A DNA stretch of 35,874 nt from positions 1-35,874 of the forward strand of contig CAMELE010000001.1 of NCBI GenBank assembly GCA_945923475.1, read 5' to 3'. The translations under genes were made by a program, and so were the position numbers. The notes beneath the pieces are model-generated. The model was not told the origin of the DNA and made no database searches. It saw only the letters and a program-made list of their open reading frames with translations. Positions 1-32,119 of the stretch are shown piece by piece; the first letter of the stretch is position 1, and every line of letters starts with the position of its first letter. Source of the stretch: an uncultured Mollicutes bacterium (GTDB lineage: Bacteria; Bacillota_I; Bacilli_A; Acholeplasmatales; Anaeroplasmataceae).

Positions 1-60
1 GGATCAGGATCAGGATCAGGATCAGGATCAGGATCAGGATCAGGATCAGGATCAGGATCA
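1..60. repeat. (GGATCA)x10 perfect hexanucleotide tandem repeat, inside the CDS above
   Basis: Direct reading of positions 1-60. Confidence 0.95.
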
Positions 61-317
61 GTCCGAACAGTGCCCTCATCTCTGTATGCAGTATGCCAAC
101 TACCAGCTGTATAAAACTCTATTAAAGCAACGTAAGAGTATCGTGTATTAGGAGTTAACCCAGTAATTAAAACGAAAGGCGTTCCAGTAGTAGAACTACC
201 TTCATACTCTTCACCATCCAATAGTACACTTATTTTTCTACTAACATTGTCATTGCTTAAGCCAGAACCGGTAAACCTTAAAGTATAGGCAGTTGAAGTA
301 ATGTCTATAGAAGCCAT
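1..317 (-). CDS. 5'-partial structural-like protein with C-proximal (Asp-Pro)n linker; runs off the window start
   Basis: ATG at 315-317 (minus) preceded by AGGAGGAAATTAA RBS. Open frame to position 1. The (GGATCA)10 at 1-60 encodes DPDPDP... in this frame. Confidence 0.55.
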   Translation of the reverse strand, partial: MASIDITSTAYTLRFTGSGLSNDNVSRKISVLLDGEEYEGSSTTGTPFVLITGLTPNTRYSYVALIEFYTAGSWHTAYRDEGTVRTDPDPDPDPDPDPDPDPDPD

Positions 318-835
318 TTAATTTCCTCCTTTTATCTTAAAAATTTCTAAAAGCATTTTTGAATTGCGGTTTTCGGTCCTTGTGCTTGATGCCGGTCGGA
401 CCACATTAACTGCTCCTATTTAAGCAAACAAAAATGCTCTTAAATTTTGTCATCATGTTCTTTTACTCCGCAAACGCTAACCCGCAGGTTGCCTTACGCT
501 TCCTTCCACCATCAAAGAACAATCAAACTCCATTTAAGAGCATTTCCTCGGTTTGTTTTCAGTATTCAATTTGGTTAGATTTAAATAGGAAATCTTACTT
601 ATTCCGCACCGATCAACATTAAAATTAACAATAGTGCCAAATCACCTTTAATATAAATATTCCTTACCTATTCTTAATCACTCTTTCGTTGTGGTTAACG
701 TCTTTTCTTCAGCCTGTTAGGAAAAGAAACCTATCGTTTTAAATAAACAACGCCGTCGCCATCTACGACCTTGCTACTTACTCAGGTACGATAAGCAGTT
801 TTTGCGATTACTATAAAGTATACTGCCAAATACTT

Positions 836-925
836 TGGTCGGAGATGAGGGAATCGAACCCACTCGAGCGACTAAGCGCACCGGTTTTACAGACCGGGGT
901 GTCTACCTTATCACGTTAATCTCCG
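836..925 (-). tRNA. tRNA-Tyr (anticodon GTA), class II with long variable arm, CCA encoded
   Basis: Hand fold of the reverse complement. Acceptor CGGAGAT/ATCTCCG. Anticodon stem CCGGT/ACCGG with loop CTGTAAA. T-arm GTGGG-TTCGATT-CCCTC, then A + CCA. Confidence 0.75.
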
Positions 926-1207
926 AAATATATTTCTTATAATCTTTAATAAAACGCCAATAATCTTCTCGATTTTATTTTGAGGGTTTTAATTAGGTTA
1001 ACCCACAACCTCCGATAGTGTGTCTACTGGACCAAGGAAATACCCGATCGCCGTATTTCGCTCTTTAAAAGATGGACGCTTCTAATCCTACTTCCTATCG
1101 TATAAAAGGACTTATCAATGACTTTTATACATATTGCCTTTATTACCTTTATAAACAAATTAGCATTACCCAGTGCTACCGCGAGGAGGTTTTGTTTTTA
1201 GCACCGC

Positions 1208-1294
1208 AGCCCCGCTGGGATTCGAACCCAGAACGACTCCTTCAAAGGGAAAACGGTTTTAGAGACCGCCGTGTTAACCGTTACACTACGGGGC
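1208..1294 (-). tRNA. amber suppressor tRNA (anticodon CTA, reads UAG); class-II-like long variable arm
   Basis: Reverse complement gives D-arm TAGTGTAACGGTTAACAC, anticodon stem GCGGT/ACCGT, loop CTCTAAA (U33, anticodon CUA, A37), ~20-nt variable region, T-arm CTGGG-TTCGAAT-CCCAG. Acceptor GCCCCGT/GCGGGGC carries a 1-nt register irregularity. Confidence 0.75.
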
Positions 1295-1299
1295 AATAA

Positions 1300-2055
1300 T
1301 TATATTAAATCCCACTCTTCATCAGAATAAGAATTAATATCTCTTTTTGTTGAGGGAAGACTATATCCTCTACACCATTTACGGATAGTGTTATCATTAA
1401 CTCCAAACTTTTTACCTAAAGAAGTAAAAGTCTATCCACGAATTAAATTTTTTAATTCATTTCTATCTGGTCGAGCTACTTTTCTATCTTTTAAATGATT
1501 ACAAGCACTACAACGAATACTTTTGTTATCAGATAATTCTTTTCCACAATCACAACAGTATCGTTTTTTTCTACGGTTATTTCTTAAAGGATAAGTATAT
1601 CCTTCTAATCGACGACTTTTACCGTGATTTATTGTAGAAATAACATCTTGCCCTACATTAAACTATTTTGCTATATTTCCTTGAGAAATATTAGAATTTT
1701 GTAATAAATCATAAATCTCTAATAATTGTTGTTTAGAAATTTTAGACTAACTATTACAATTATTTTGTCCACCAGTTGTTTCATTATAACCATTAAAATA
1801 AGTATCAAATAACTAAATATAATACTTTTCCTTTTGGTCTAATTCTTTTTGAGAACATTCTTCTAAAATCTCCCAAGTAAAACTATCTAATCCATATTTT
1901 CTAAAAGCTCTACATAAAGTTTTTTCATATTCTTCAGAATTAGGATTAAATGCTCTGCTTTTTTCTTTAGTCCATCTATTTTCAATATTGATAGACTATC
2001 CAATATAAGAATGATTATTTACTTTATTTGTAATTTTATAAATTCCACAACTCAT
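1300..2055 (-). CDS. GIY-YIG homing endonuclease (I-TevI-like, C-terminal zinc finger plus HTH), 251 aa, with five in-frame TAG codons
   Basis: Manual minus-strand translation: MSCGIYKITNKVNNHSYIG*SINIENRW...RYCCDCGKELSDNKSIRCSACNHL...GVNDNTIRKWCRGYSLP. One TAG falls in the canonical YIG-Q-S motif. 756 nt, an exact multiple of 3, ends TAA. Absent from the standard-code ORF track. Confidence 0.8.
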
Positions 2056-2142
2056 TAAACTACCTTCTTTCTTTTTCTATTATATATAAAAATTAAAAGA
2101 AGATAATAATAAAGATTCGACCTCGAAATTGAATTTTTTTAT

Positions 2143-2265
2143 TAATTCAACTTACGGAGTTTTCGCTTCATCTTATTAATGAGGCGCTGATTCATAACTT
2201 CACTATGGGAATACAACTTCGCAATGCGATTTTCATAATGCTCTTTAGTGCGATAAATCATAATT
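2143..2265 (-). CDS. small hypothetical protein (40 aa, basic)
   Basis: AAGGAG RBS 8 nt before the ATG. Followed on the minus strand by the inverted repeat TTGAATT...AATTCAA plus T-run, terminator-like, at ~2100-2140. Confidence 0.35.
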
Positions 2266-2390
2266 TTTCTCCTTAAATTGAATTTATGATCCAGAGAGGG
2301 TTATCTGCGTCATCTAGACCCAATTTTTATTCATTATATATTCTTTCAGAGTAGCAAATTCTTAATTAAATATATAACTTAGCAGAACTC

Positions 2391-2490
2391 TGGTGGCACG
2401 GCCGGCTGGACTCGAACCAGCAGATGCAGGAGTCAGGGCTCAAAAGTTGGACTTGCACCAACATTCTCGGTTTTATAGGACCGGAAGCCT
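2391..2490 (-). tRNA. tRNA-like element: T-arm GCTGG-TTCGAGT-CCAGC and acceptor 3' strand + CCA are clear; 5' half not confidently folded (possible Leu-CAA-like loop); may be degenerate
   Basis: Reverse complement ends ...GCTGGTTCGAGTCCAGCCGGCCGTGCCACCA. No complementary 5' acceptor strand found upstream even allowing G-U pairs. Confidence 0.3.
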
Positions 2491-2840
2491 ACTAACAGAA
2501 CTTATATAATACTACTTAACCCCGTCATATTATATAACCCATTTAACTGATTTTGAGAAAGTCCTGTGCCTTACCATTTTGGCGACGGCCGTATAAACAA
2601 GACACCAAAGAATTTCAATCAATTCATTTCATCTATTTGTCGATTAATTCTCTCTTACCCCAAACAGACTACACCTTCAACAGGCAATCAAAAATTATTT
2701 GTAAAACAATATCTCTGTATCTTCTGTTATAGAAAATTCGCAGTTTGTGGTGTCTTTGATATATTTAAGACGCGAACGCCGTGCTCAACCATTACACTAA
2801 TTACAGCTGATTATTGGAATCGAACCAATCCTGCGTTCGG

Positions 2841-2916
2841 TGGTACGGGATGAGGGACTCGAACCCACGACCTCCTGAATGTAAATCAGATGCGCTACCA
2901 GCTGCGCTAATCCCGT
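2841..2916 (-). tRNA. tRNA-Val (anticodon TAC), CCA encoded
   Basis: Acceptor ACGGGAT/ATCCCGT, D-arm GCGC-AGCTGGTA-GCGC, anticodon stem TCTGA/TCAGG with loop TTTACAT, T-arm GTGGG-TTCGAGT-CCCTC (U50-U64), A73 + CCA. Confidence 0.8.
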
Positions 2917-2925
2917 ATAAGCAAC

Positions 2926-3129
2926 TCAATTAATGAAAGTTGCTACAAAATCCTTTTCGAGCATATACATGGGAGCAGAAGCAAAACCGCCATCATCAAT
3001 CTTACAATACAGAATAATATTTTCTGCATTGGGATTGGAAGCACGAGTAATTGCTTTTACAAGCTCCTTATTATCAATGGAATTATAATAGCAACCAAAA
3101 TCAATAGAAGTCTTTTTCATTTTTTTCAA
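2926..3129 (-). CDS. hypothetical protein (67 aa)
   Basis: ORF track. The promoter/leader cassette sits immediately upstream (3130-3190). Confidence 0.6.
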   Translation of the reverse strand: MKKMKKTSIDFGCYYNSIDNKELVKAITRASNPNAENIILYCKIDDGGFASAPMYMLEKDFVATFIN

Positions 3130-3153
3130 TTCCTTTCTTAACTTTCTATATAT

Positions 3154-3182
3154 ATTATATTATATTTTTTATAAAAAATCAA
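3154..3182 (-). promoter_or_regulatory. sigma70-like promoter, minus-strand TTGATT-N17-TATAAT, one copy of the repeated promoter/leader cassette
   Basis: Minus-strand reading: -35 TTGATT (plus aatcaa 3177-3182), 17-nt spacer, -10 TATAAT (plus attata 3154-3159), then leader ATATATAGAAAGTTAAGAAAGGA and the ATG. Confidence 0.6.
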
Positions 3183-3213
3183 AAAAGTTATTTCAAACTA
3201 GACACATTAGAAA

Positions 3214-3290
3214 CATAATTTTAAGTTATGTGCGTTAACCAATTTCGCCAAAACCCCAATTGGAGTTTACAGGATTTGAACCTGTATACC
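3214..3290 (-). tRNA. apparently circularly permuted tRNA-Leu(UAA)-like unit: [variable region + T-arm + acceptor 3' strand + A] - ATT - [acceptor 5' strand + D-arm + anticodon arm]
   Basis: Minus-strand reading GGTAT ACAGG-TTCAAAT-CCTGT AAACTCC A | ATT | GGGGTTT T G GCG-AAATTGGTTAA-CGC A CATAA-CTTAAAA-TTATG. The acceptor halves pair 7/7 with one G-U. Only ~37 nt precede the T-arm and no T-arm follows the anticodon arm, so a normal gene order is impossible. Confidence 0.45.
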
Positions 3291-3322
3291 TTTCTAATGA
3301 AAGAATTGCTGTATGTGTCTTA

Positions 3323-3350
3323 TGGTCCGAGTGAGACGACTTGAACGTCC
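3323..3350 (-). tRNA. orphan tRNA 3' fragment (T-arm GGACG-TTCAAGT-CGTCT + CACTCGG + A + CCA) with no 5' half
   Basis: Only 35 nt separate it from the 3' end of the upstream tRNA-Pro. No complementary 5' acceptor strand found. Confidence 0.35.
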
Positions 3351-3385
3351 GGCTGTCAGTTCAAATCAAACTAAACAGCGCTTCG

Positions 3386-3459
3386 TGGTAGAAGACGTGG
3401 GATTCGAACCCCTATTCAAGCTCCCAAAGCTAGCGTGTTACCATTACACTACATCCTCT
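3386..3459 (-). tRNA. tRNA-Pro (anticodon TGG), CCA encoded
   Basis: D-arm TAGTGTAATGGTAACACG, anticodon stem CTAGC/GCTTG (one mismatch) with loop TTTGGGA (G37). T-arm GGGG-TTCGAAT-CCC. Acceptor pairs with G-U wobbles; +/-1 register ambiguity. Confidence 0.65.
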
Positions 3460-3469
3460 ATATTAAGCC

Positions 3470-3982
3470 TTATTTCAAAGGCTCTAATTTAAACTCTTCG
3501 GTTAAACGATATAAATGTAAAGAAATTTTACGATGACAATTAGGACACAAAATACATAAATTATTTGGATCATTATTGTCATGGTTTTCATCTTTATGAT
3601 GAACTTCTAAAATGCGTTTTTCTTCATCATAGCCGCATACAGCACATTTATGTTCATATAAATCAAAAGCAGTTTGACGATAATTATTTCCTTTAAAAGC
3701 AAAATGATTTTCGCCACTTTTAAATAAGGTATTATTCATACCATTAGCACAACTTCTACTACAATAAACATTTCCAGTAATAGAACGCTTTAATTCTGAA
3801 TTTCTTTTCCAAACTTCTTTTCCACAATTCGCACAATGACATAATGTGCTTCCTTTATGACTGCGACATTCAGATGAACAATAAAATGCTGAATTCTCTT
3901 TTAATTTAGCATTATATCGCTTTAATTCAATCTCATATTCTTTATTACATACTACACATTTCACTTTTACCATTGTCGGCAT
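3470..3982 (-). CDS. HNH homing endonuclease, standard code, about 170 aa
   Basis: ORF track 3470..4045. HNH motif EVHHKDENHDNNDPNNLCILCPNCH plus several CxxC zinc-finger pairs. Start refined to the ATG preceded by AAAGGAG (MPTMVKVKC...); ATGs at 4000 or 4045 are alternatives. Confidence 0.8.
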   Translation of the reverse strand: MPTMVKVKCVVCNKEYEIELKRYNAKLKENSAFYCSSECRSHKGSTLCHCANCGKEVWKRNSELKRSITGNVYCSRSCANGMNNTLFKSGENHFAFKGNNYRQTAFDLYEHKCAVCGYDEEKRILEVHHKDENHDNNDPNNLCILCPNCHRKISLHLYRLTEEFKLEPLK

Positions 3983-4096
3983 ATAACCAACTCCTTTCAT
4001 TATTATATGAAAGTTAGGTAAGAATGATTGTTCTCGAAAGACCAAAATCTGTCCAAAAGATTATGTGAACCCGATCTAGCGATCGAGCGATCGCAA

Positions 4097-4173
4097 TGGT
4101 TGTCTGGGAGGGACTCGAACCCTCGATCTCCCGATTATCAGTCGGACGCTCTAACCAACTGAGCTACCAAACA
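4097..4173 (-). tRNA. tRNA-Ile (anticodon GAT), CCA encoded
   Basis: Acceptor TGTTTGG/CCAGACA, D-arm GCTC-AGTTGGTTA-GAGC, anticodon stem TCCGA/TCGGG with loop CTGATAA, T-arm GAGGG-TTCGAGT-CCCTC. Confidence 0.8.
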
Positions 4174-4380
4174 TTATTTATTTTGAGAAAGAAGTAAAAG
4201 AACTTTTTCATCTTGATAATCCGGAAGACCAATTTCGTAGAAAATTTCTGCGATATAATAATCAGTTCTTCCATCTCTTTTGGACAAATAATTACAAAGA
4301 ATTTCAGCATTTTCTTTGAATTTGAAATCTATGGGAAAATACAAAGGACTATTTTGAATTGCAACACGATAACAAAGCAT
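4174..4380 (-). CDS. hypothetical protein (68 aa)
   Basis: ORF track. AAGGAG RBS upstream of the ATG at 4380. Confidence 0.55.
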   Translation of the reverse strand: MLCYRVAIQNSPLYFPIDFKFKENAEILCNYLSKRDGRTDYYIAEIFYEIGLPDYQDEKVLLLLSQNK

Positions 4381-4397
4381 AGTATTTCTCCTTATTA

Positions 4398-4488
4398 GAA
4401 CAAGACACCATTGATTTACGGCGTTCTACCATTGAACTAATCCCCTATATAGTGGCAGGGGATGAAAGGAATCGAACCTACACTTCCG
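4398..4488 (-). tRNA. second permuted-like tRNA unit: T-arm + acceptor 3' strand ATCCCCT + G + CCA, then CTATAT, then a perfectly complementary acceptor 5' strand AGGGGAT + canonical D-arm. Anticodon arm irregular (6-nt loop)
   Basis: Minus-strand reading ...GTAGG-TTCGATT-CCTTT C ATCCCCT G CCA CTATAT AGGGGAT TA GTTC-AATGGTA-GAAC G CCGTAAATCAATGG.... Too little room upstream of the T-arm for a 5' half. The downstream half runs into the RBS of the 4174..4380 gene. Confidence 0.35.
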
Positions 4489-4575
4489 GCTTGGTATGCA
4501 ATCAAAATTGCTGTTAATGTCTTTAACTTATATATTTATTATATAATATTTTTTTATAAATGTCAAAAAGTTTTA

Positions 4576-5433
4576 TTAAGTAGTTAAAAACGCATTATAA
4601 CCTTTTGATTTTAAATCATTAATTACTTTTATAGCATTTGCTTTGACAGAAAAAGCACCAACTTGAACTTTATAATACTTGCCAATCTTACGAATATAAG
4701 CATTTTTATAACCTGCTCCAATAGTATCAGGTAATGCTTTAATTTTCAATAAGAAAGCGTCAGCATTAGATTTAGATCCAAAAGCACCAAGTTGAACGCG
4801 ATAAATAATTTGCGGTTTAAGGTAAATAGCCACTACATTATCGACAGCGCGATTGCCCCAATCTTTAGTGATACAAGCTCCATTATGAAGAACTTTCGTG
4901 CTACCACCGCCATCAAGGTTAATTGCATAATCAACTTTTAATGCTAAAAGTAAATTCTACATTTCTGTAAATGCCATGCCTGGCTTTTCAATAGCAATTA
5001 AATAAATATTAAATTTATTATATGCTAATACCGTTCTACGAGCTTTATAATTTAACTCTTTGGCATAAGTAATTTGAGTTTTTTTGCCAGCCTTAATTAA
5101 TACTGGATAACCGCTAACAAAATCTTCAAACTTTTCTGTTCCAATTATACCGTATTTCAATTCACCATTAATGATACCAAAGCCTTCTTTATAAGAAGAA
5201 GTGGAATTAATGATTATACCATTATCCATATAATTAAAACAAGTGCTGCCATTATCCATGCTAAAGAAACCACCATTAGTTAAAATAGTAGGTTTAACCG
5301 CGCAACTATCATAGTATTGCTTTAAAGTCTAACGCGGTTGAGCGCATAAGGCCATATCTAACTTACTAATTTCTTCTTTTGGAATTTCAATAATTTTTAC
5401 ATATGAATAATTGCTTGGAGAATATATCTTCAT
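4576..5433 (-). CDS. phosphodiester-glycosidase-like (DUF2233-type) protein with two C-terminal SPOR-like peptidoglycan-binding repeats; 285 aa with two in-frame TAG codons
   Basis: With TAG as sense, track ORFs 4957..5259 and 4576..4833 join upstream sequence into one 858-nt frame. Hallmarks: ILTNGGFF and NLDGGGST (DUF2233-like), YRVQLGAFGSKSNA and YKVQVGAFSVKANA (SPOR-like). ATG at 5433 after AAGGAAGG. Confidence 0.65.
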
Positions 5434-5493
5434 CAAATCACCTTCCTTAATATTTTTAAGGTTTCAATGACTTTTATTAATGAAATATACCCT

Positions 5494-5570
5494 TGGCATC
5501 CCCGGAGCGATTCGAACGCCCGACACAAGGATTAGAAATCCTTTGTTCTATCCAACTGAACTACGGGGAC
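5494..5570 (-). tRNA. tRNA-Arg (anticodon TCT), CCA encoded
   Basis: Acceptor GTCCCCG/CGGGGAT, D-arm GTTC-AGTTGGATA-GAAC, anticodon stem AAGGA/TCCTT with loop TTTCTAA, T-arm GGGCG-TTCGAAT-CGCTC. Confidence 0.8.
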
Positions 5571-5686
5571 AAATTCGCTACAAGACTCTTCATTCTTCTT
5601 AATCCCATATTAAGCGCTTATTGCAAGCAAAAAAGTTGCTGTATGAGTCTTTATTTAGTTAAGAAAGGAAATACCATGATAATGGT

Positions 5687-5775
5687 AGGGCGAGGGAGAC
5701 TCGAACTCTCCATTGAGCGATTTGGCCTGTGAATTAGGCCTTGAACCTAAATCTTCGTAGTACTACCGTTATTTT
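5687..5775 (-). tRNA. tRNA-like element, fold unresolved (alternative T-arms GAGAG-TTCGAGT-CTCCC and TTAGG-TTCAAGG-CCTAA; CCA ends present)
   Basis: Hand folding gives two competing structures. No single canonical cloverleaf could be built. Confidence 0.3.
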
Positions 5776-5842
5776 ACCATTTAAACTACTCACAGATAAG
5801 TCGCCTAGTCTAGCCTTTGACTTACCACCCCAGATCGGCGAG

Positions 5843-6361
5843 TCAAGAAACCCGCGATTTCAACCAATAAACTGACATTCGTTCATTAGGCTGATTTGTC
5901 ATTTCACCTTTTGGCCCTAAGATTTCAGGATAAGGCCAAACATATTCATTAGCAGTCTTTTCATCAGGAAATTCAATTTCTGCATAGCAAAATTTCCCAT
6001 CAACTTCACTAATTTCAATCAAACGATTAGGATTGTAAATATCTTCAACCATGTAATAATCCTTAATAATAGGATTATAACCTTCATGTCGAGTTTTCTT
6101 AATCATTTCATAGAAATCTGAGGAAATTGGCGTTTCAATTTCTTCACGAGAAAGACCATCACCATATTTATAAGTCATCTTATAATCAACTTGATTGGTT
6201 TTAAGATTAATGGCTTTCCGCACTCGAATTTCTTCAAGCACTTTACCATCATTATCAAAGTCAATCATAAGATAGATTTGTTCAATTTTCTTATGACGGA
6301 CACTTTTTTCCTTCATCCAAGAAGGAATATTTTTAATATCAAACTTACGTTCGATTTCCAT
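5843..6361 (-). CDS. CYTH-domain (triphosphate-tunnel metalloenzyme / CyaB-like) protein, 172 aa
   Basis: N-terminal MEIERKF... is the CYTH EXEXK signature. Ends in TGA. Confidence 0.65.
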   Translation of the reverse strand: MEIERKFDIKNIPSWMKEKSVRHKKIEQIYLMIDFDNDGKVLEEIRVRKAINLKTNQVDYKMTYKYGDGLSREEIETPISSDFYEMIKKTRHEGYNPIIKDYYMVEDIYNPNRLIEISEVDGKFCYAEIEFPDEKTANEYVWPYPEILGPKGEMTNQPNERMSVYWLKSRVS

Positions 6362-6500
6362 TTTTATACTCCTTTAACTCTTGGAAATAAGTAAGAATCT
6401 ACTCATTTTTATCAATAATCTCTGGATTATAATTATAATACTTCATAGAAGCAATCTAATCTTTCCATTCAGCGATTAACTAATCTACGGTATAATTCAT
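6345..6500 (-). CDS. small hypothetical protein (51 aa) with three in-frame TAG codons
   Basis: GGTGAAATT then ATG. Continuous only if TAG is sense. Overlaps the CYTH gene start in the +1 frame. Confidence 0.3.
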
Positions 6501-6519
6501 AATTTCACCTACTTACTAT

Positions 6520-6595
6520 TGGGGTGACTGGCGGACTTCGAATCCGCGACATTCTGAGCCACAATCAGACGCTCTACCAACTGAGCTACAGCCAC
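6520..6595 (-). tRNA. tRNA-His (anticodon GTG), C73 + CCA encoded
   Basis: Acceptor GTGGCTG/CAGTCAC, D-arm GCTC-AGTTGGTA-GAGC, anticodon stem TCTGA/TCAGA with loop TTGTGGC, T-arm GCGGA-TTCGAAG-TCCGC. Confidence 0.8.
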
Positions 6596-6596
6596 A

Positions 6597-6684
6597 TGGT
6601 GCTTTTGATGAGACTCGAACTCATATGAACTTTACGTCCACTAGATTCTTAGTCTAGCATGTATACCAATTCCATCACAAAAGC
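6597..6684 (-). tRNA. class II tRNA-Leu (anticodon read as AAG; A34 is unusual), CCA encoded, abuts tRNA-His
   Basis: Acceptor GCTTTTG/CAAAAGC (perfect). Anticodon stem CTAGA/TCTAG with loop CTAAGAA. 16-nt variable arm. T-arm ATGAG-TTCGAGT-CTCAT. Confidence 0.6.
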
Positions 6685-6736
6685 ATTTTCTTATTTTTTA
6701 TATATTTATTATACAATATTTTTTTTATAAAGTCAA

Positions 6737-6780
6737 AAGGGGCCGATGTAAAGTATATTTACTTTACATCGGCCGTCGCG
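6737..6780 (-). terminator. rho-independent terminator hairpin for the AAA+ gene upstream
   Basis: GGCCGATGTAAAGTA-TATT-TACTTTACATCGGCC perfect inverted repeat, followed (minus-strand reading) by a T-rich run and the promoter cassette at ~6690-6735. Confidence 0.6.
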
Positions 6781-7920
6781 TTAATAAAGATACTGTTCAA
6801 TAGTATTTGCGACCTTAGTTAAAACAACAGACTTAATCACGCGCTCATTTTTAGCCTTTTCGATAGCTTCCTTACGCTTTTCTACATTGCTGATCGTCCA
6901 AAAGTCATCAGGATCAATGTAAATTTCAACCTTTTTCGGATCGGCCGTAATCATACCCTTTTCAATCTTAATTGAATCAGGAGTCAAGGCATAACGAATA
7001 GTCTTACTATCTGAGGCATAACCATCATACCATCTTTTATGATCGGCATTAGGATTGCTAAACAAATTAACTGAAACACCATAGGTATTATACACATCAC
7101 CATTTACCGTAGTAATAGTGATATTGAAACGAACATTGGAAGTTTGAGAAATATTAAGATCTTCAAGAGTTTCTGCCACACCATAACCCTGATTAAGTTC
7201 AAAAGCAATCGCGCGAAGATAATCATAAGTCATATTGGTAGTACGAGAAAAATTCACAATATCCTTAATACCACTCGCATATTTAGGCTTAACCTTATCA
7301 GTAAGATATTCTACAATCTCTTCCTCTGTTGGATAAGTAATCTTAAAATGATAATGAAAACGACCAGGCCGATTCAATAGATAAGTGCTAAGTCGATCAA
7401 CTTCATTACAAGTAATAACGAAAAGCTTCTTACCATTATCAAGACCATCAAAAAGAGAAAGCATTTCCTCCTGCGGAGAGGGGCCCGCATGGTCGTCAGA
7501 GTTATTAGAGAAATTCTTTTCAAACTCATCAAAAATAATTACGACTTCTTGCTCGATACTGGAAATAAAATCTGCGATACCGGGCACATAAGTATTAGCC
7601 AAGAGAACAGGATATCCGCTTTCAATAGCGTGATGAGAAAGAATACGAGCAAACAATGACTTGCCAATACCCTTCTGACCACTTAAAATAACACCAAGAT
7701 TACGGTCTGAATACTTAAAAGAATTAAGCACCTTATTGACTTTAACTTCGTGATTACCATAAATTTTTTCCTCATTGACCGCAAGGTCTGGACGAGAAGA
7801 AAGATAAAAACCTGCCATTTTATTAAAGCAGATTTCAAAAGACATAAGCGGAAGTCGCTTATAAGTCTTAACGTCCTCGCCATAAATCTGATAGCGAGAA
7901 CCAGCATTTACAATATTCAT
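6781..7920 (-). CDS. AAA+ family ATPase, about 379 aa
   Basis: Walker A GQKGIGKS, Walker B VVIIFDEFE. Start refined to MNIVNAG, preceded by AAGAGGA. The longer track ORF start overlaps tRNA-Ser. Confidence 0.8.
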   Translation of the reverse strand: MNIVNAGSRYQIYGEDVKTYKRLPLMSFEICFNKMAGFYLSSRPDLAVNEEKIYGNHEVKVNKVLNSFKYSDRNLGVILSGQKGIGKSLFARILSHHAIESGYPVLLANTYVPGIADFISSIEQEVVIIFDEFEKNFSNNSDDHAGPSPQEEMLSLFDGLDNGKKLFVITCNEVDRLSTYLLNRPGRFHYHFKITYPTEEEIVEYLTDKVKPKYASGIKDIVNFSRTTNMTYDYLRAIAFELNQGYGVAETLEDLNISQTSNVRFNITITTVNGDVYNTYGVSVNLFSNPNADHKRWYDGYASDSKTIRYALTPDSIKIEKGMITADPKKVEIYIDPDDFWTISNVEKRKEAIEKAKNERVIKSVVLTKVANTIEQYLY

Positions 7921-7947
7921 ACTTAATCCTCTTAATTTAAAATTTAA

Positions 7948-8035
7948 TGGCGGAGCCACCGCGAGTCGAACGCGGACTACCTATAAAGGTAGGAAAGCTT
8001 AGCAGGCTTTTGTGATACCATTACACCATAGCTCC
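7948..8035 (-). tRNA. tRNA-Ser (anticodon GCT), class II, G73 + CCA encoded
   Basis: Acceptor GGAGCTA/TGGCTCC. Anticodon stem AAAGC/GCTTT with loop CTGCTAA. Long variable arm CCTACC...GGTAG. T-arm CCGCG-TTCGACT-CGCGG. Confidence 0.8.
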
Positions 8036-8039
8036 ATTA

Positions 8040-8273
8040 TTTACACCTATATATGATTAGTTTATGCTTAATACTATATCCACAATAACTATGCTAAGTG
8101 CGATAATTACTAAAAATATAATACTTTCTATCGGATTTAATATTACCAAATAAATTTAAAACTCTCAATCCCTGTTTATAATGAGAAGTTTTATTATTTA
8201 CTTGATAATTAGCCCAATCAAGAATTTCTTGACCGCTAAAACAAGGATTTTTATAACTTAAAATATTTTTCAT
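8040..8273 (-). CDS. small hypothetical protein: 77 aa if the internal TAG is read as sense, 58 aa if TAG terminates
   Basis: GGAGG RBS then ATG at 8273. One in-frame TAG. The extended frame ends TAA next to tRNA-Ser. Confidence 0.4.
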
Positions 8274-8682
8274 ATTCTACCTCCTCTGCTTTTCTGGACT
8301 TGGAACCAGCCTATGGTAGCATTAGGTAGGCGACCGCACTTATCGTTCGCTAGGACAAAATTCACGCTCATCGCCAAAAATCAAATCATCAACATCTTTA
8401 AACATATCAGACAATCCTCCTTTTTTATTTAATTTTATGAAACAAAATAGAGAGTAGAAAAACAATTCATTTCTATGGAAGTGAGAGAAAACAACAATCT
8501 ATATATCAAACGAAAGGGGAAATCAAACAGAAAGATAAGTAAGAAAATGAACTAGATGTAAAAGACTCTCTCTATTGTATAGTCTTTTATTTCTATATAT
8601 TTAAATATATAGAAGAGTAGCCTTTCTAACAGGCATTCCAACAGCCTCGAGCAGCAAAGAGGTTCCTCATTTGTTGGTCTTT

Positions 8683-8758
8683 TGGTGGGCGGAGACAGAA
8701 TCGAACTGCCGACGCTAGGATCTTCAATCCTACGCTCTACCAGCTGAGCTATCCGCCC
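8683..8758 (-). tRNA. tRNA-Phe (anticodon GAA), CCA encoded
   Basis: Acceptor GGGCGGA/TCCGCCC (perfect), D-arm GCTC-AGCTGGTA-GAGC, anticodon stem TAGGA/TCCTA with loop TTGAAGA, T-arm GGCAG-TTCGATT-CTGTC. Confidence 0.85.
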
Positions 8759-8972
8759 ATAATATTTATATTGCTACGATTCCCGATTCTCCACGTAGTC
8801 ATTCTTCCTTTAAAATTTACTAAAAGAATGTGATATTTTATTTATCGTCCTACATCAACAATATAAATAGAACAAGACGCTATAAACAATCCTAAGCATA
8901 TGTATTTCGTACATTGATGTTTTAAAGTTTGCTGTTAGCGCCTTAATTATTCAAAAAGAAAGGAAAGATAAA

Positions 8973-9176
8973 TTATGCGTTTGCGGGTTCCGCGTTCTTC
9001 GGTCTGCGGAACTTTACATAACGCTCACCATCATGTCGGGACATCCAAATGATTGTGCCATCCTTAAAATGGAAATCATAAGTAAAATCCTTATCCTGTT
9101 CATCAATCTGATGGCAAAAGCCCTTACCGTACTTCTTAGAATAAACCTTGTCGCCGGGCTTAAATTTAAACTTCAT
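8973..9176 (-). CDS. hypothetical protein (67 aa)
   Basis: ORF track. Confidence 0.5.
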   Translation of the reverse strand: MKFKFKPGDKVYSKKYGKGFCHQIDEQDKDFTYDFHFKDGTIIWMSRHDGERYVKFRRPKNAEPANA

Positions 9177-9221
9177 TTAGATATCTCCTTTTGGATTATT
9201 TTAATTTACAAGACACAAATG

Positions 9222-9294
9222 AAATATTTGTTGGAATTGAACCAACTACAGTTTGTTTAACAGACAAATGCTCTACCAAATGAGCTAAAATATT
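9222..9294 (-). tRNA. tRNA-Asn (anticodon GTT) with an unusually AT-rich acceptor stem
   Basis: Acceptor AATATTT/AAATATT, D-arm GCTC-ATTTGGTA-GAGC, anticodon stem TTTGT/ACAAA with loop CTGTTAA, T-arm GTTGG-TTCAATT-CCAAC. Confidence 0.7.
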
Positions 9295-9370
9295 TTCAAT
9301 AGAAAATGATTGCTGTGTGTGTCTTTATTACTGTGATACCTCTTATTAAGAGGGCTTACGGCGTTACGCC

Positions 9371-10012
9371 TTAAATATATTTCCAGATATAACCATAAGC
9401 AGATTTTCGTTTACCATTCGCGCATTCTGCTATATGACTTCTAACTCCAGAACTATAATTTAAACATTTTTTATTTTTATAACACCACTATCCAGCTTCA
9501 GCTACTGATTCAAATGAATTAAGTAAATCTCCATTTTTATCATATTGTTTAATTGCTTTAGATTTTTCTTTTCTTAAATTTTCATTCGCTCGATTAATTA
9601 TCTAAATACAATTTTCTTTTGCTATTGAATAAACTAAATCTAGACTACAATGAAATAGTTCAGCTATTTCTATTGGACGAGGATTTATTTTTAATGCTTT
9701 TAAAATTTCTTTATGGTCATAAATTAATTTGCCATCGCCACCTTTAGTAGCATTATATCCATTCTAATAAGCATTTAATTTTTCAATCCAATAAATTTCT
9801 CTTTCTTCTGGATCGTCAGTCTCTTCAATTAGCTCAATATGAAAATGTTCTACTCCATATTTTCGCATTGCCGAATATAATGGACGTTTTTCATTGCGCT
9901 CTCTAAAAGCATCTTTACAATGTTCTTTAAAACGCTTCTCAATAAAAAACTCAGTTTTTCCAATATAAATTTTCTAATTTACATCATTGATAATTTTATA
10001 AATATATGCCAT
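9371..10012 (-). CDS. GIY-YIG homing endonuclease, 213 aa, with five in-frame TAG codons
   Basis: Minus-strand translation MAYIYKIINDVN*KIYIGKTEFFIEKRFKEHC...YWIEKLNAY*NGYNATKGGDG.... 642 nt, an exact multiple of 3, ends TAA. Invisible in the standard-code ORF track. Confidence 0.8.
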
Positions 10013-10146
10013 ATTCTTATCATCCTCCATTATTTTATGGAGTTTTTGGTTGCTAAATTATCTAAACGCAACCAAAATTTTAGTCCCACCGTTAGTTTAA
10101 ACAGAGCATACCATCGTGAAGGTGTGTGGTGACATTTTATGCTCCT

Positions 10147-10215
10147 TGCGGTCGGGCGATTCGAACGCCGTTTTTAGCTTATGAGGCTAACGAGCTACCT
10201 TTGCTCCACCACCGC
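10147..10215 (-). tRNA. tRNA-Met-like (anticodon CAT); short, 4-bp T-stem
   Basis: D-arm GAGC-AAAGGTA-GCTC, anticodon stem TTAGC/GCTAA with loop CTCATAA, T-arm GGCG-TTCGAAT-CGCC, acceptor GCGGTGG/CGACCGC with one mismatch. Confidence 0.55.
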
Positions 10216-10217
10216 AA

Positions 10218-10293
10218 TGGTCGGTCAAATTAGAATCGAACTAATATCCCTTGTCTTATGAGAACAATACTCTACCAATTAAGCTATTGACCG
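10218..10293 (-). tRNA. tRNA-Met (anticodon CAT; could be elongator Met or a lysidine-type Ile2), CCA encoded
   Basis: Acceptor CGGTCAA/TTGACCG (perfect), anticodon stem TTGTT/GACAA with loop CTCATAA, T-arm ATTAG-TTCGATT-CTAAT. Confidence 0.75.
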
Positions 10294-10455
10294 AAAATGG
10301 GATAGATATAATATTCGCGACCATTATATCTATTGGACTTTCTAACCCATCGTCCCAAAATTCTTAATAGACCTCATCAAATGGCCAACTTTTGTAGAGG
10401 CTTTTGTGCGACTCTGCATGCGCACTCACATAGACATAAGAATGATGCCAACGTA

Positions 10456-10533
10456 TGGCGACCCAGGCGGGGCTCGAACCCGCGGTCTTAGCCGTGACAG
10501 GGCTACGTGATATTCCAGCTTCACTACTGGGCC
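10456..10533 (-). tRNA. tRNA-Asp (anticodon GTC), G73 + CCA encoded
   Basis: Acceptor GGCCCAG/CTGGGTC, anticodon stem TAGCC/GGCTA with loop CTGTCAC, T-arm GCGGG-TTCGAGC-CCCGC. Confidence 0.8.
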
Positions 10534-10536
10534 ATA

Positions 10537-10614
10537 TGGTACTCCTGGTGGGATTCGAACCCAACGACTCTAGCGTGAAAGGCTAGTGACTTAAGCCCAC
10601 TTGTCGACAGGAGC
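10537..10614 (-). tRNA. tRNA-Glu (anticodon TTC), CCA encoded
   Basis: Acceptor GCTCCTG/CAGGAGT, anticodon stem CTAGC/GCTAG with loop CTTTCAC, T-arm TTGGG-TTCGAAT-CCCAC. Enlarged D-loop. Confidence 0.7.
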
Positions 10615-10684
10615 ATATTATTTATTTTATTCTACATTAGTAAAAACAGGATATACCACGTGAAGGTTGTAGAATTTATATCCC

Positions 10685-10758
10685 TGACCTCAGCCAGATT
10701 CGAACTGACATCTCAACCTTGAGAGGGTTGCCACCTAAGCCAATTAGTAGATGAGGCC
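10685..10758 (-). tRNA. tRNA-Glu (anticodon CTC); atypical D-arm
   Basis: Acceptor GGCCTCA/TGAGGTC, anticodon stem CAACC/GGTTG with loop CTCTCAA, T-arm GTCAG-TTCGAAT-CTGGC, A73. Confidence 0.6.
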
Positions 10759-10762
10759 ATAT

Positions 10763-10903
10763 TTAAGCACATCTATCATAATCTTGATTTTTGTGCTTTT
10801 GTTTTCGCTTAAACGAACCTTTACCTTTCTTCGCAGGAACTTTAAATCCTCTGCGCCGAAATAATTGAAGATATTCATTAAGCTCTTCCTTGTTTTTTTT
10901 CAT
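10763..10903 (-). CDS. small basic protein (46 aa, Lys/Arg-rich)
   Basis: ATG directly after the stop of the acidic peptide ORF. Sequence MKKNKEELNEYLQLFRRRGFKVPAKKGKGSFKRKQKHK.... The longer track ORF 10763..11011 overlaps the acidic peptide in another frame. Confidence 0.4.
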   Translation of the reverse strand: MKKNKEELNEYLQLFRRRGFKVPAKKGKGSFKRKQKHKNQDYDRCA

Positions 10904-10907
10904 ATAA

Positions 10908-11018
10908 CTTTTATTCACGGTATTCATCCTCATCTTCATAAAGGGAAAGATCCTGATAAGCAGCATATTCATCACTTTGAATCTCGCAAGCATAGCTTTC
11001 ATAGTAATCATTATACAT
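10908..11018 (-). CDS. small acidic peptide (36 aa, Tyr/Glu/Asp-rich)
   Basis: Lies immediately after the promoter/leader cassette at 11022-11090, ...GAAAGGAAGATTTAAATT then ATG. Sequence MYNDYYESYACEIQSDEYAAYQDLSLYEDEDEYRE. Confidence 0.4.
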
Positions 11019-11198
11019 AATTTAAATCTTCCTTTCTTAACTTTCTATAAATATTATAACTTATTTTTTATAAAATGTCAAAAGATTAAAAGACCAACCA
11101 AGAAGCGATATTTGTTAACGATGGTCGCCACTCCACCGCCGTCAATACTCATAAATGCTTATCATTTTCACATTAACCTACTAATTAAAGGAGGTGAC

Positions 11199-11286
11199 TG
11201 GTGCTTCGAGAGAGACTTGAACTCTCACCATCCATTCGGATAATCGGGTTTGAGCCGATCGCGTCTGCCAATTCCGCCATCAAAGC
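11199..11286 (-). tRNA. tRNA-Leu (anticodon CAA), class II, CCA encoded
   Basis: Acceptor GCTTTGA/TCGAAGC, anticodon stem ATCGG/CCGAT with loop CTCAAAC, long variable arm, T-arm GAGAG-TTCAAGT-CTCTC. Confidence 0.75.
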
Positions 11287-11289
11287 ATA

Positions 11290-11390
11290 ACTAAGAGGAT
11301 TTTTAAGAAGAATCCTCAAAACTTCTTTCTAATCTAATGGAAGTTTTAAGAAGATCTTCCAACTTCTTTCTAATCTTAATCGCACTTTAG
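11290..11390. repeat. tandem duplication of a ~48-bp unit, each unit a hairpin followed by AACTTCTTTCTAATCT
   Basis: Hairpin 1 GAGGATT-TTTAAGAAG-AATCCTC. Hairpin 2 GGAAG-TTTTAAGAAGAT-CTTCC. Confidence 0.6.
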
Positions 11391-11837
11391 GGCGGCCGTC
11401 CCTCCGCGGCGTCACGGTAAATATAATATAATTTTTTATCCAAAAAAAGGTTATGAGCCAAAAAGGGATAATTATTTAAGACATAATTATCAAGACTACG
11501 CTACTTTTCAAATTTTCTCTTCTTAGTGGGAAAAACTTTCTTAGCGCTGAAACCAAAATCACTATTAGCATTTTGTATATATTATCTTATTGTATATAAG
11601 TTTTATTAATATACCTTATCTATTATATCGTTTAGTATATTGTATTAAGTTTTAATTAATAAGATAATATTTCTGGCTGCTTTTATCACCAATCATATAA
11701 TCGGTTATATCAGGCAATGCTCCTAAACTTGCGGTTTATTCAACCGCCGTGCTTACTCTTTACACCATATAACCATTTCTATTCACTATTAGCGTTACCC
11801 ATCATCTACCTCGTGGCGGTTATGAATTTTAGATGAC

Positions 11838-11913
11838 TGGACCTCGTGAGAATCGAACTCACCTGATTTTCTGTGTGCAAGACAGACGACCACGCCATGC
11901 AGTCCCGAAGCCC
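11838..11913 (-). tRNA. tRNA-Ala (anticodon TGC)
   Basis: Acceptor GGGCTTC/GAGGTCC (G-U wobbles), D-stem GACT/GGTC, anticodon stem TCTGT/ACAGA with loop CTTGCAC, T-arm GTGAG-TTCGATT-CTCAC, A73. Confidence 0.65.
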
Positions 11914-11988
11914 GAAATGCGACTTATTTATGTATAGATGGAGTCGCCAACCACCATTTGAGTTTTACCAGATATCCCGAGGAGGGAT

Positions 11989-12064
11989 TGGTGCTGGAGA
12001 AAGGACTCGAACCTTCAGATTAATGATCCTAAATCATTCGCCTATGCCAATTCGGCTACACCAG
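11989..12064 (-). tRNA. tRNA with anticodon TAG (formally Leu) but a short class-I variable arm; CCA encoded
   Basis: Acceptor GCTGGTG/CTCCAGC (one mismatch), anticodon stem AATGA/TCATT with loop TTTAGGA, T-arm GAAGG-TTCGAGT-CCTTT. Confidence 0.55.
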
Positions 12065-12912: not shown

Positions 12913-12983
12913 GTCCGGAAAATGGATTTGAACCATTAACTTAATCTTGAAGGATTATGACCTAACCTTTAGTCTATTCTGGA
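12913..12983 (-). tRNA. tRNA-like element with a 6-nt anticodon loop (CTTCAA; would read UCA if a 7th nucleotide is recruited); possibly a pseudogene
   Basis: Acceptor TCCAGAA/TTCCGGA (one A-C mismatch), D-arm GACT-AAAGGTTA-GGTC, stem TAATC/GATTA, T-arm AATGG-TTCAAAT-CCATT. Confidence 0.3.
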
Positions 12984-28263: not shown

Positions 28264-29163
28264 TCACTCCTTTTGTAAATATTTATTACCAAGTAATAAG
28301 TCTAAAGTAATGTTATCACGTTCCCAATAAGGGATCCTTACTAAAGAAATATTATGAGATAAAGCATAATCATTTTTTATTTTATCTCGTTTTTGTGTAG
28401 CTTCTAATTCTCCCCAAGTAGGAACTTCCATAAAATGTTGTTCTCCGTCAAATTCAATTAATCTATTATAATCAGGTAAATAAAAGTCATATCTTAAATT
28501 ACCTAAATTTTTATATTTATATTCTTTAATATAAGTAATATTATTTTCAGATAAAATATTACTTATATGGTATTCTCCAAGAGACGTTTTTAAACAACCA
28601 CAAGAAATTTTTCTTCCACTTAATAAAGATTTACTTGAAGTATCACATTCATTACCACAATCACATCGACAATGCCAAATAATACGGTTATTTTTTCTTT
28701 CAGGTTGTTCAAATAATACAGTTAATTTACCAAAACGCTAACCAATTAAATCTTTTTTAGTTAAATTAGCTACCATTTCTTTATGTAAACACCCACAAGA
28801 CTATGTATTTCCAGTGGTTAAATCGTTAGTTGCATAATAAACAATATTACCACATTCGCATTGGCATTCCCAAATAATACGGTTATCTTTTCTTTTACCA
28901 GAATCTTTAATAACAGTTAAACGTCCAAATTTTTGGCCTACTAAATCTTTTTTGGTATTATTACTTGCTACTTCTTTCCTATAACAACCGCAAGATTTAG
29001 TGCTACCATTTCTTAACCTATTTAAACTAATACTTTTTATATTACCACAATCACACTAACATTTCCAATAAGTAGAACTATGTGTTTTAGTTTTTTCTAC
29101 ATCTATTTCTAAAGCAGTTAGACGTCCAAATTTCTAACCACTTATATCCTTATATTTTCCCAT
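28264..29163 (-). CDS. HNH-type homing endonuclease-like protein: three tandem zinc-finger modules (G-Q-[KR]-F-G-[RK]-L-T ... W-x-C-x-C-x-C-G-N ... S-C-G-C) plus a C-terminal PD-(D/E)XK-like (Vsr/DUF559-like) domain; 299 aa with four in-frame TAG codons
   Basis: Minus-strand translation MGKYKDISG*KFGRLTAL...YWKC*CDCGN...; second module DLVGQKFGRLTVI...IIWECQCECGN uses CAA at the same positions; third DLIG*RFGKLTVL...IIWHCRCDCGN. C-terminal YDFYLPDYNRLIEFDGEQHF. 900 nt, an exact multiple of 3, ends TGA. Confidence 0.75.
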
Positions 29164-31390: not shown

Positions 31391-32119
31391 TTAGTCGATA
31401 TTATTTCGATTTTTTGACGGAATTAGATCGTCAATAGTTAAATCTTCATATTGTAAATATGAGATACGAATTAATGGTATATTATGTTCTTTGCACCATT
31501 TATTTTTATATTCGTCTCTATCCTAAATTTTTTTAATGTCTTCTCCCCATCCTCCATCTGGTTCTGTATGTTGACGGCCATCATATTCTATAAGATATTT
31601 ATTATCAACATAAAAATCAAACCGCAAAGGATAGTTAGTTTCAGGATTACGACAATCTTTAAATTTTTTTTCCATTTCAAAAGGGATATTATTCTCAGTT
31701 AATAATTGAGAAATTTTTAATTCTCCAATTGAAATTTTTAAACATCCACAAGAATTTACTTTATGAGTTCGTAATTCATAAGGTCTTACGTAGACAATGT
31801 TTCCGCAATCACACTAACACTATATTTTATAAGTGCCACTTGGTGATCTATGATTAAAGTCTCTTTTTATTGCGGTTAATTTACCGAAGCGATGACCTAT
31901 AATATCATCACTTTTATGACGATTCATTCGTTCTTCTTGAATTAAACATCCGCAAGACTTACATCCGCCCGAAGTTAAAAGATTTGTATAAGCGAAATGC
32001 TCTTTACCACAATCACAACGGCATTTCCAAACAATATTACCATGTTTACGTTCAGAAGTTTCTTCTATAACAGTTAGCTTTCCAAAACGCTAACCAATTA
32101 AATTTTGTTTTTTTGCCAT
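31391..32119 (-). CDS. HNH-type homing endonuclease-like protein (paralog of 28264..29163; two zinc-finger modules plus a PD-(D/E)XK-like C-terminus), 242 aa with four in-frame TAG codons
   Basis: MAKKQNLIG*RFGKLTVI...VWKCRCDCGK...CKSCGC...IIGHRFGKLTAI...KI*C*CDCGN...NSCGCL...RFDFYVDNKYLIEYDGRQH...KKI*DRDEYK. 729 nt, an exact multiple of 3, ends TAA. Confidence 0.75.

Follow-up and report, generated by a model that had tools for sequence, protein, structure and literature searches.

We describe an amber-suppressor tRNA gene, tRNA(CUA), on a 35,874-nucleotide stretch of DNA (contig CAMELE010000001.1 of assembly GCA_945923475.1, filed under an uncultured Mollicutes bacterium; the whole stretch is called the window here). 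From its sequence, this tRNA, a member of a large family in uncultured phages, is best described as a tRNA-Gln whose core carries two tandem anticodon arms, and the order of its parts is best given as D arm, nucleotide 26, the decoding anticodon hairpin (hairpin 1), 1–2 nt, a second, anticodon-like hairpin (hairpin 2), 5–6 nt resembling a variable loop, and the T arm. We favor, at slightly better than even confidence, the reading that it is a Gln-inserting phage amber suppressor in which hairpin 2 restores the anticodon identity that is recognized by the host charging enzyme.

The gene occupies positions 1207 to 1295 of the minus strand, with U1 at 1295 and G73 at 1207. ARAGORN called a 90-nt tRNA with anticodon CTA at c[1206,1295], and Rfam RF00005 matched 1207–1295 on the minus strand with 56.2 bits, compared to a gathering score of 29 (E = 4.3e-10). 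An earlier note on this DNA had placed a CUA tRNA at 1208–1294; the place was right, although the true ends are 1295 and 1207. Its account of the anticodon stem-loop (U33, CUA, A37), the D arm and the T arm agreed with our reading of the sequence, its variable region of about 20 nt came to 21 nt when counted, and ARAGORN, one of the tRNA finders that it proposed as a check, recognized the gene. The 5′ half reads U1-GCCCCG / UA / GUGU-AACGGUUA-ACAC / G26, the middle GCGGU-CUCUAAA-ACCGU followed by the 21-nt variable region UUUCCCUUUGAAGGAGUCGUU, and the 3′ part CUGGG-UUCGAAU-CCCAG / CGGGGC-U72 / G73. The 3′ acceptor strand, CGGGGCU (1208 to 1214, minus strand), faces 1289–1295, giving G2:C71 and C3:G70 next to a U.U mismatch at 1:72. 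CCA is not encoded, and the bases after G73 are CGG. The D arm, with its 4-bp stem and 8-nt loop containing GG, is class-I-like, and the acceptor/T-stem arrangement is the canonical 7/5. Hairpin 1 (1253 to 1269, minus strand), given by ARAGORN and by the sequence, has a 5-bp stem that covaries in the family alignment described below and a 7-nt loop, C-U-CUA-A-A, with CUA at 1262–1260 between U33 and A37. Identical copies of the gene were found in the viral contigs L009, L027 and L031 (181–196 kb), and contigs L006 and L013 carry a copy that differs by 1 nt.

Two other identities suggested by the anticodon or the length were rejected. ARAGORN labelled the gene "tRNA-Pyl" because it goes by the anticodon only. 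tRNA-Pyl is marked by a 3-nt variable loop, a small D loop, a 6-bp anticodon stem and linked pylS/pylBCD genes. The 21-nt variable region and the normal D loop with GG do not fit that label, and the ten window proteins scanned included no pyl gene products. An allo-tRNA would show an 8/4 or 9/3 acceptor/T arrangement, which is absent here.

Hairpin 2 (1237 to 1251, minus strand), recognized from the sequence and from family statistics, has a 4-bp stem, UUCC/GGAG, and a 7-nt loop, C-U-U-U-G-A-A, whose central UUG, at 1245–1243, is a Gln anticodon. The variable region thus runs from one unpaired U through UUCC-CUUUGAA-GGAG to a 5-nt spacer, UCGUU (1232 to 1236, minus strand), that leads to the T stem; in size this spacer matches an ordinary variable loop, and A15 is a possible partner for its last U. 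ARAGORN drew the variable region unpaired, and minimum free energy folding, of the whole tRNA as well as of the region by itself, yielded a weak hairpin, for the region by itself a 3-bp stem of −1.5 kcal/mol. Because this value was on par with shuffled sequences and no better, single-sequence folding cannot establish hairpin 2; the 4-bp stem emerges from the comparison with relatives. We considered and dropped two further features of the region: complementarity of the T loop (UUCGAA) to the loop of hairpin 2 (UUUGAA), which is not retained in CUG-type or Ile-type members, and a Shine-Dalgarno-like GGAGG in some hairpin-2 3′ strands, which is not conserved.

To define the family, we scanned IMG/VR for a CUA anticodon loop followed by a gap and a T loop, leaving the variable region unconstrained; all family counts are among the matches listed, from sequences that are related by descent. 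Taking a variable region of at least 13 nt as a long arm, two scans and later ones yielded a set of 58 distinct long-arm CUA tRNAs from viral contigs. The hairpin-2 motif, defined as CUG or UUG at the center of a 7-nt loop with two or more closing base pairs, was present in 45 of the 58 (CUG in 39, UUG in 6), compared to 3.4 for shuffled variable regions and 5 of 205 for the variable arms of Leu, Ser and Tyr tRNAs that these loci also encode. When the scan was anchored on the motif itself, it lay 3′ of the anticodon arm in tRNAs of at least 80 nt solely together with CUA, apart from one ordinary Leu arm. Across the 45 members, the loop follows the pattern C/U, U, C/U, U, G, A, A/G, which is that of the real tRNA-Gln anticodon loops of the same loci. 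U35 and G36 of the displayed triplet are invariant (45/45); position 34 takes no base other than C or U, and with either one the triplet is a Gln anticodon. The commonest hairpin-2 loop, C-U-CUG-A-A, differs from the decoding loop, C-U-CUA-A-A, solely at position 36. The 3′ spacer measures 5–7 nt in 41 of the 45, and the D arm, built of a 4-bp stem and a 7–8-nt loop, is in several members identical to the D arm of bona fide phage tRNA-Gln(UUG) genes: GGUGUAAUGGUUAGCAC.

The stems of the family vary around this constant triplet. In an alignment of 28 relatives, compensatory changes were seen in 15 of 19 cloverleaf pairs. RNAalifold on the MAFFT version of that alignment found the four standard stems and did not find hairpin 2, because MAFFT had placed the motif out of register; we therefore used a register-fixed 19-nt alignment to measure hairpin-2 covariation. 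The stem scored 0.461, compared to 0.177 for shuffles, none of 500 of which reached the observed value, and partners slid out of register scored at most 0.18; the pairing percentage is inflated, since the two inner stem pairs belong to the selection rule. The third pair occurs as UA, GC, CG, AU and UG. Stem lengths range from 2 to 5 bp across the family, and the hairpin of the window tRNA is thermodynamically weak. Judged from these comparisons, the hairpin-2 loop is under selection to stay a Gln anticodon.

If hairpin 2 were instead idle in aminoacylation, as a relic of duplication or a structural brace, the suppressor would be charged through its acceptor end and U35, as in E. coli supE. The decoding anticodon differs by one base from the displayed one both here (CUA/CUG) and in a tRNA-Ile family described below (UAU/GAU), so an origin by duplicating the arm and then mutating one copy would be simple. 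Amber suppressors are glutaminylated via U35 and acceptor features (PMC9976931; Borges preprint), and short-arm Gln-like CUA tRNAs that have no hairpin 2 exist, often adjoining the long ones. We nevertheless consider an idle hairpin unlikely. A relic should drift, yet the triplet stays a Gln anticodon throughout while the stems of the acceptor, the D arm and hairpin 2 diverge and covary, and GAU is likewise kept independently in the Ile family.

The adjoining short-arm genes lie 3–5 nt from a two-hairpin CUA tRNA in contigs L001 (5901–5975 and 5979–6069), L045, L058, L117, L130 and L468, and carry U1.C72 or U1:A72; the window has no such neighbor. A 78-nt CUA tRNA-like gene with a long D loop and an aberrant T arm, GGGUCGGCACC, stands beside the two-hairpin suppressor at 435–512 in L029 and 3312–3389 in L032. 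Among GenBank phages, megablast of window positions 1–12000 returned no match, and blastn of three family members matched solely phAss-1 ("Caudoviricetes code 15 clade"), where an 88-nt "tRNA-Sup-CTA" lies a few bases from a 72-nt Gln-like CUA tRNA. A scan of GTDB genomes used too loose a pattern, so that most of its 119 matches were chance, but 7 were real family members, all on contigs of metagenome-assembled genomes. These contigs are labelled Bacillota, Acutalibacteraceae and Erysipelotrichaceae, labels that are a weak guide to the host.

The earlier note had left two options for the long arm: an unusual Gln suppressor derived from a class II scaffold, or a suppressor inserting Ser, Leu or Tyr. 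The E. coli Gln identity set comprises the anticodon, including U35 and G36, the 1-72, 3-70 and 10-25 pairs and G73 (PMC9976931). Nearest-neighbor assignment of the isotype, by global alignment of tRNA cores, gave too noisy a result, with Lys, Gln, Ile and Trp as top hits, and we replaced it with counts at the acceptor and discriminator positions. Of the 45 family members, 42 have a weak or mismatched 1:72 pair (U:A in 19, A.C in 10, U.U in 7, A:U in 4, U.C in 1 and U.G in 1), and 43 of 54 bona fide tRNA-Gln genes have U:A there, compared to G:C in 655 of 1095 other tRNAs. G2:C71 occurs in 40/45 family members, 43/54 tRNA-Gln genes and 432/1095 other tRNAs, and G73 in 34/45, 35/54 and 251/1095, respectively. 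The window tRNA itself has the weak 1:72 (U1.U72), G2:C71, G73 and G10:C25, the last of these being a GC pair in 25 of 28 relatives. Its decoding anticodon provides U35 but has A36, and hairpin 2 holds the full U-U-G. The acceptor end carries a tRNA-Gln signature.

The Gln half of the note's first option thus stood, and its class II scaffold did not, the arm being a second, Gln-anticodon hairpin. With 21 nt and a 4-bp hairpin, the variable region does have the length and stem-loop that distinguish class II tRNAs (more than about 10 nt), but it is unlike their arms otherwise. In 214 Leu, Ser and Tyr tRNAs of these loci, the variable-arm loop was mostly 3–4 nt and the 3′ spacer nearly always 0–3 nt, whereas the window tRNA combines a weak stem with a 7-nt loop and a 5-nt spacer, and has G73 and a 4-bp D stem with a small D loop in place of the 3-bp stem and large loop of a long class II D arm. 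Its G73 is at odds with the A73 expected of Leu and Tyr tRNAs. A class-II-derived suppressor charged with Ser, Leu or Tyr could still draw on the length of the region and on G73, which is also the tRNA-Ser discriminator, and CUA suppressors of true class II type do occur in other phage contigs. The 13 long-arm CUA tRNAs that lack the motif look Leu/Tyr/Ser-like, with large D arms, G1:C72 in 9/13 and A73 in 10/13; this is a different signature from that of the motif-bearing family. Given also that TAG aligns with Gln and not with Ser, Leu or Tyr, we regard this origin as highly improbable for the window tRNA. Contigs with true class-II CUA suppressors include L008, L015, L021, L038, L081, L113, L132, L047, L068, L080, L098 and L138, some of them longer than 400 kb; their tRNAs have large D arms, ordinary variable stems and mostly A73, and TAG may not be Gln there.

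A decaying, non-functional pseudogene could also account for the 1:72 mismatch (U.U), the lack of an encoded CCA and the unusual variable region. We find this barely credible: 7 of the 45 family members and 6 of the 54 normal tRNA-Gln genes likewise have U.U at 1:72, the gene has identical copies in several contigs and an Rfam score of 56 bits, and the window genes need a decoder for UAG.

The need for a UAG decoder is evident from the open reading frames. Among 34 minus-strand frames examined, 7 contain a total of 22 in-frame TAGs, and five genes hold 2–6 each: two GIY-YIG endonucleases, a lysin-like gene with NAGPA and SPOR domains, and two paralogous repeat proteins. The 34 frames end in TAA (28), TGA (6) and TAG (0), TAG not having been treated as a stop when they were defined. 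We rejected a second recoding, of TGA, which was found solely as a terminal stop in this set. The GIY-YIG homing-endonuclease gene (1300 to 2055, minus strand; from its translation and Pfam PF01541) contains five in-frame TAGs and ends in TAA 4 nt upstream of the 5′ end of tRNA(CUA), in keeping with the earlier note, which had seen a TAG-containing homing-endonuclease gene right beside the tRNA. At its YIG-TAG-S site, Gln stands opposite TAG in 120 of the 120 homologues listed. The lysin-like gene (4576 to 5433, minus strand; from its translation and the homologue alignment) has two in-frame TAGs. The first aligns with Gln in 88 of 120 homologues listed (Glu in 28, Arg in 1, gaps in 3), and the second with Gln in 110 of 120 (Lys in 7, Arg in 2, Tyr in 1). 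Within the repeat proteins, G-TAG-KFGRLT lines up with G-Q-KFGRLT of the same protein.

Because proteins of recoded phages in the databases would make an alignment to Gln circular, we checked the DNA of homologues. One homologue of the endonuclease, P0062, has TAG itself at the same site. For three homologues from the Joint Genome Institute (P0099, P0161 and P0206), the recorded proteins were reproduced with the standard code (code 11). P0099, an endonuclease, has the codon CAG at the YIG-Q site, read directly, and the lysins P0161 and P0206 have Gln at both TAG sites. In all five genes with 2–6 TAGs (1300–2055, 4576–5433, 9371–10012, 28264–29163 and 31391–32119, all minus strand), CAG is absent and CAA is used. 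By these alignments, TAG is read as Gln in the window genes, as the earlier note had supposed for the recoded positions; homologues, standard-code DNA and within-protein repeats agree. The same assignment has been published for other TAG-recoded phages (PMC10607447; Borges preprint; PMC9523058). Both CAG and CAA occur in the long genes without TAG that lie between 13 and 27 kb, so that their choice of Gln codons differs from that of the recoded set. The paralogous repeat proteins (28264–29163 and 31391–32119, minus strand) have four TAGs each, share a C-terminal domain and contain internal repeats of the form G-Q/H-K/R-F-G-K/R-L-T ... C-x-C-D/E-C-G-N; Pfam gave no match for either.

While examining other long-arm tRNAs with class-I D arms, we found a parallel in phage tRNA-Ile(UAU), whose decoding anticodon reads AUA. 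Among 57 distinct long-arm genes of this kind, 52 have GAU, the usual Ile anticodon, centered in a 7-nt loop at the same position (shuffles, 1.9), compared to 1 of 205 Leu, Ser and Tyr arms. The two mimics do not mix: GAU was found in 1 of 58 CUA tRNAs and CUG/UUG in 1 of 57 UAU tRNAs. The Ile(UAU) hairpin-2 stems covary strongly (0.651 vs. 0.175 in shuffles), and A73 is present in all 52 genes with the GAU hairpin. GlnRS and IleRS (the glutaminyl- and isoleucyl-tRNA synthetases) are both class I enzymes, and IleRS uses G34, the base that is altered in UAU, as an identity determinant. We suggest tentatively, with a little less than even confidence, a general phage strategy in which hairpin 2 carries the cognate anticodon for a host class I synthetase (Gln, Ile) and hairpin 1 carries another for the ribosome. 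As part of that same suggestion, and with no greater assurance, the window tRNA may belong to an undescribed natural class with two anticodon arms. Opal (UCA) tRNAs showed no corresponding CCA (Trp) mimic: the long-arm UCA tRNAs listed were tRNA-Sec only, and 10 short-arm ones had no mimic. Two-hairpin Ile(UAU) genes were seen in viral contigs L073, L084 and L158-L273, and in the cultured Sinorhizobium phage Phosso (PV764938.1, 383344–383436) and the Synechococcus phages S-SKS1 (NC_020851.1, 178514–178594) and S-SRM01 (NC_070963.1, 32945–33020); in two of these three cultured phages the gene is unannotated.

For the Gln suppressor we propose the following mechanism. Hairpin 1, in the canonical place after the D arm, would read UAG on the ribosome. 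The Gln-charging enzyme, either host GlnRS or a non-discriminating glutamyl-tRNA synthetase (GluRS) followed by GatCAB, would depend on U35 and G36; since the CUA anticodon has no G36, hairpin 2 would supply the missing determinant as a "pseudo-anticodon," and the weak 1:72 pair, G2:C71, G73 and G10:C25 would supply the acceptor and core determinants. We infer from the sequence comparisons that hairpin 2 is probably read by the Gln-charging synthetase. It may reach the anticodon pocket by an exchange of the hairpins stacked under the D stem, which seems the likeliest route because the canonical side of hairpin 1 is the 5′ one and that of hairpin 2 the 3′ one.

Several points weigh against this proposal. 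The arm exchange is speculation. As monomers, GlnRS and IleRS contact the inner face of the L, and the variable-arm tip would, in a class-II-like fold, lie far from the anticodon pocket. An engineered variable arm of this type, that of Mukai, needed an extra fused anticodon-binding domain (PMC7590224). The 3:70 pair of the window tRNA is C3:G70 and differs from the G3:C70 of E. coli; in the CUA family it is C:G in 30 and G:C in 15, and in bona fide phage tRNA-Gln G:C in 30 and C:G in 18. In the Ile mimic loops, position 33 is mostly A (48/52) and position 37 mostly U, and these loops are thus not full copies of an anticodon loop. A37, t6A-modified, is an E. coli IleRS determinant, and it is mostly missing from them. 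Single-sequence folding gave no more than a weak hairpin, RNAalifold missed hairpin 2 and its stems are short, the pairing figure and the family counts are subject to the selection rule and the shared descent noted above, and the host is only loosely indicated as Bacillota, and with it the choice between the GlnRS and the GluRS/GatCAB route. The SPOR domain of the lysin is closest to endolysins of Faecalibacterium phages, and the authors of the phAss-1 study also indicate a Clostridia host (PMC10607447).

The geometric difficulty of reaching the synthetase pocket leaves room for another binding partner of hairpin 2, such as a loop-modification enzyme, a phage factor, an anticodon nuclease for which the hairpin is a decoy, or a regulator that senses the Gln or Ile machinery, and conservation of the whole loop, including U33 and A37 in the Gln set, would suit such a partner. 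We think this rather improbable. The triplet is the exact cognate anticodon for the amino acid of the decoded codon, in two unrelated isotypes, both cognate enzymes read the changed base, and no candidate factor was seen among the window proteins scanned. The same U33 and A37, together with the spacer of variable-loop length that follows, would also suit dual decoding, in which either hairpin could serve as the anticodon arm on the ribosome and both UAG and CAA/CAG would be read. Hairpin-2 stems of just 2–5 bp and the A33 of 48 of the 52 Ile counterparts, which is incompatible with a U-turn, make dual decoding very unlikely; nor is a need for it obvious, as ARAGORN found no tRNA-Gln in the window but the host supplies them. 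A charging role for hairpin 2, by way of the Gln enzyme, is accordingly the reading that we retain.

Apart from the genes already discussed, the window contains a long tRNA array. ARAGORN reported 21 tRNA genes between 836 and 12983, all on the minus strand, with no tRNA-Gln among them. They are interleaved with genes for GIY-YIG (1300–2055 and 9371–10012) and HNH (3470–3982) endonucleases, which are free-standing, and with AAA ATPase and lysin genes. The gene at 6597–6684 (minus strand) is a tRNA-Leu with the unusual anticodon AAG (A34). A tRNA-like element at 12913–12983 (minus strand; Rfam, 46 bits) has a 6-nt anticodon loop, C-U-U-C-A-A, and was left unassigned by ARAGORN ("Glu|SeC", anticodon "tc"); TGA is not recoded in the open reading frames examined. 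The frame at 3–317 (minus strand), which runs off the end of the window, finishes in a long (Asp-Pro)n repeat, DPDPDPDPDPDPDPD.

Comparison with known systems shows both likenesses and differences. A phage CUA suppressor for Gln is already known, and a homologue is annotated in phAss-1. Suppressors of the supE type and those of code 15 phages resemble the window tRNA in their CUA anticodon, their Gln-type acceptor end and the use of TAG at Gln positions, but they are described as ordinary tRNAs, whereas the window tRNA has an extra Gln-anticodon hairpin. Class II tRNAs (Leu, Ser, Tyr and Sec) share an extra stem-loop between the anticodon and T arms and a length of about 90 nt; the window family differs in its class-I-like D arm, 7-nt loop, 5–7-nt spacer and conserved loop sequence, and in a discriminator and first pair that are Gln-like. 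The nematode nev-tRNAs and the allo-tRNAs are charged by leucyl- and seryl-tRNA synthetases, which ignore the anticodon, whereas GlnRS and IleRS read it. Both groups are reported to have long variable arms and a mismatch between anticodon and amino acid, and some occur in phages; nev-tRNAs are reported to decode an alternative Leu code, and the acceptor/T arrangement of allo-tRNAs is 8/4 or 9/3, in contrast to the 7/5 of the window tRNA (PMC5389517, PMC3333845).

Closer parallels come from anticodons in non-canonical places. Mukai 2020 placed a mimic of the anticodon arm on the variable-arm tip of an amber suppressor to recruit a synthetase's anticodon-binding domain, and such a pseudo-anticodon can raise aminoacylation if the synthetase has an extra domain of that kind (PMC7590224). 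That system was synthetic, used an allo-tRNA chassis and a HisRS (histidyl-tRNA synthetase) fused to the extra binding domain, and had a modest effect, whereas the window family is natural and is not known to have a modified enzyme. Plant-virus tRNA-like structures carry a cognate anticodon in a non-canonical place and are bound by the cognate synthetase (PMC9976931). The operator of thrS mRNA likewise is reported to have a cognate-anticodon hairpin bound by its synthetase. Neither of these decodes, while the mimic proposed here would coexist with a decoding anticodon. In the full-text literature searched, we came across no account of a natural tRNA whose variable arm is anticodon-like, nor any remark on the extra arm in papers on recoded phages; subscription journals lay mostly outside that literature, and an earlier description is possible.

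How the suppressors of recoded phages are charged has been listed as an open question (Borges preprint), and a built-in pseudo-anticodon offers a concrete hypothesis for charging by an unmodified host. For annotation, current tools call such genes Pyl, Sup or "TERM," and their length invites confusion with Ser, Leu or Tyr tRNAs. If the proposal is true, it would explain how code-15 phages have their suppressors charged without encoding a synthetase, and it would provide a natural design for host-charged suppressors and codon-reassigning tRNAs, an idea that has so far been synthetic only. It would also amount to a new principle of tRNA identity, in which the identity and decoding anticodons reside on separate arms, and which has apparently evolved twice, for Gln and for Ile.

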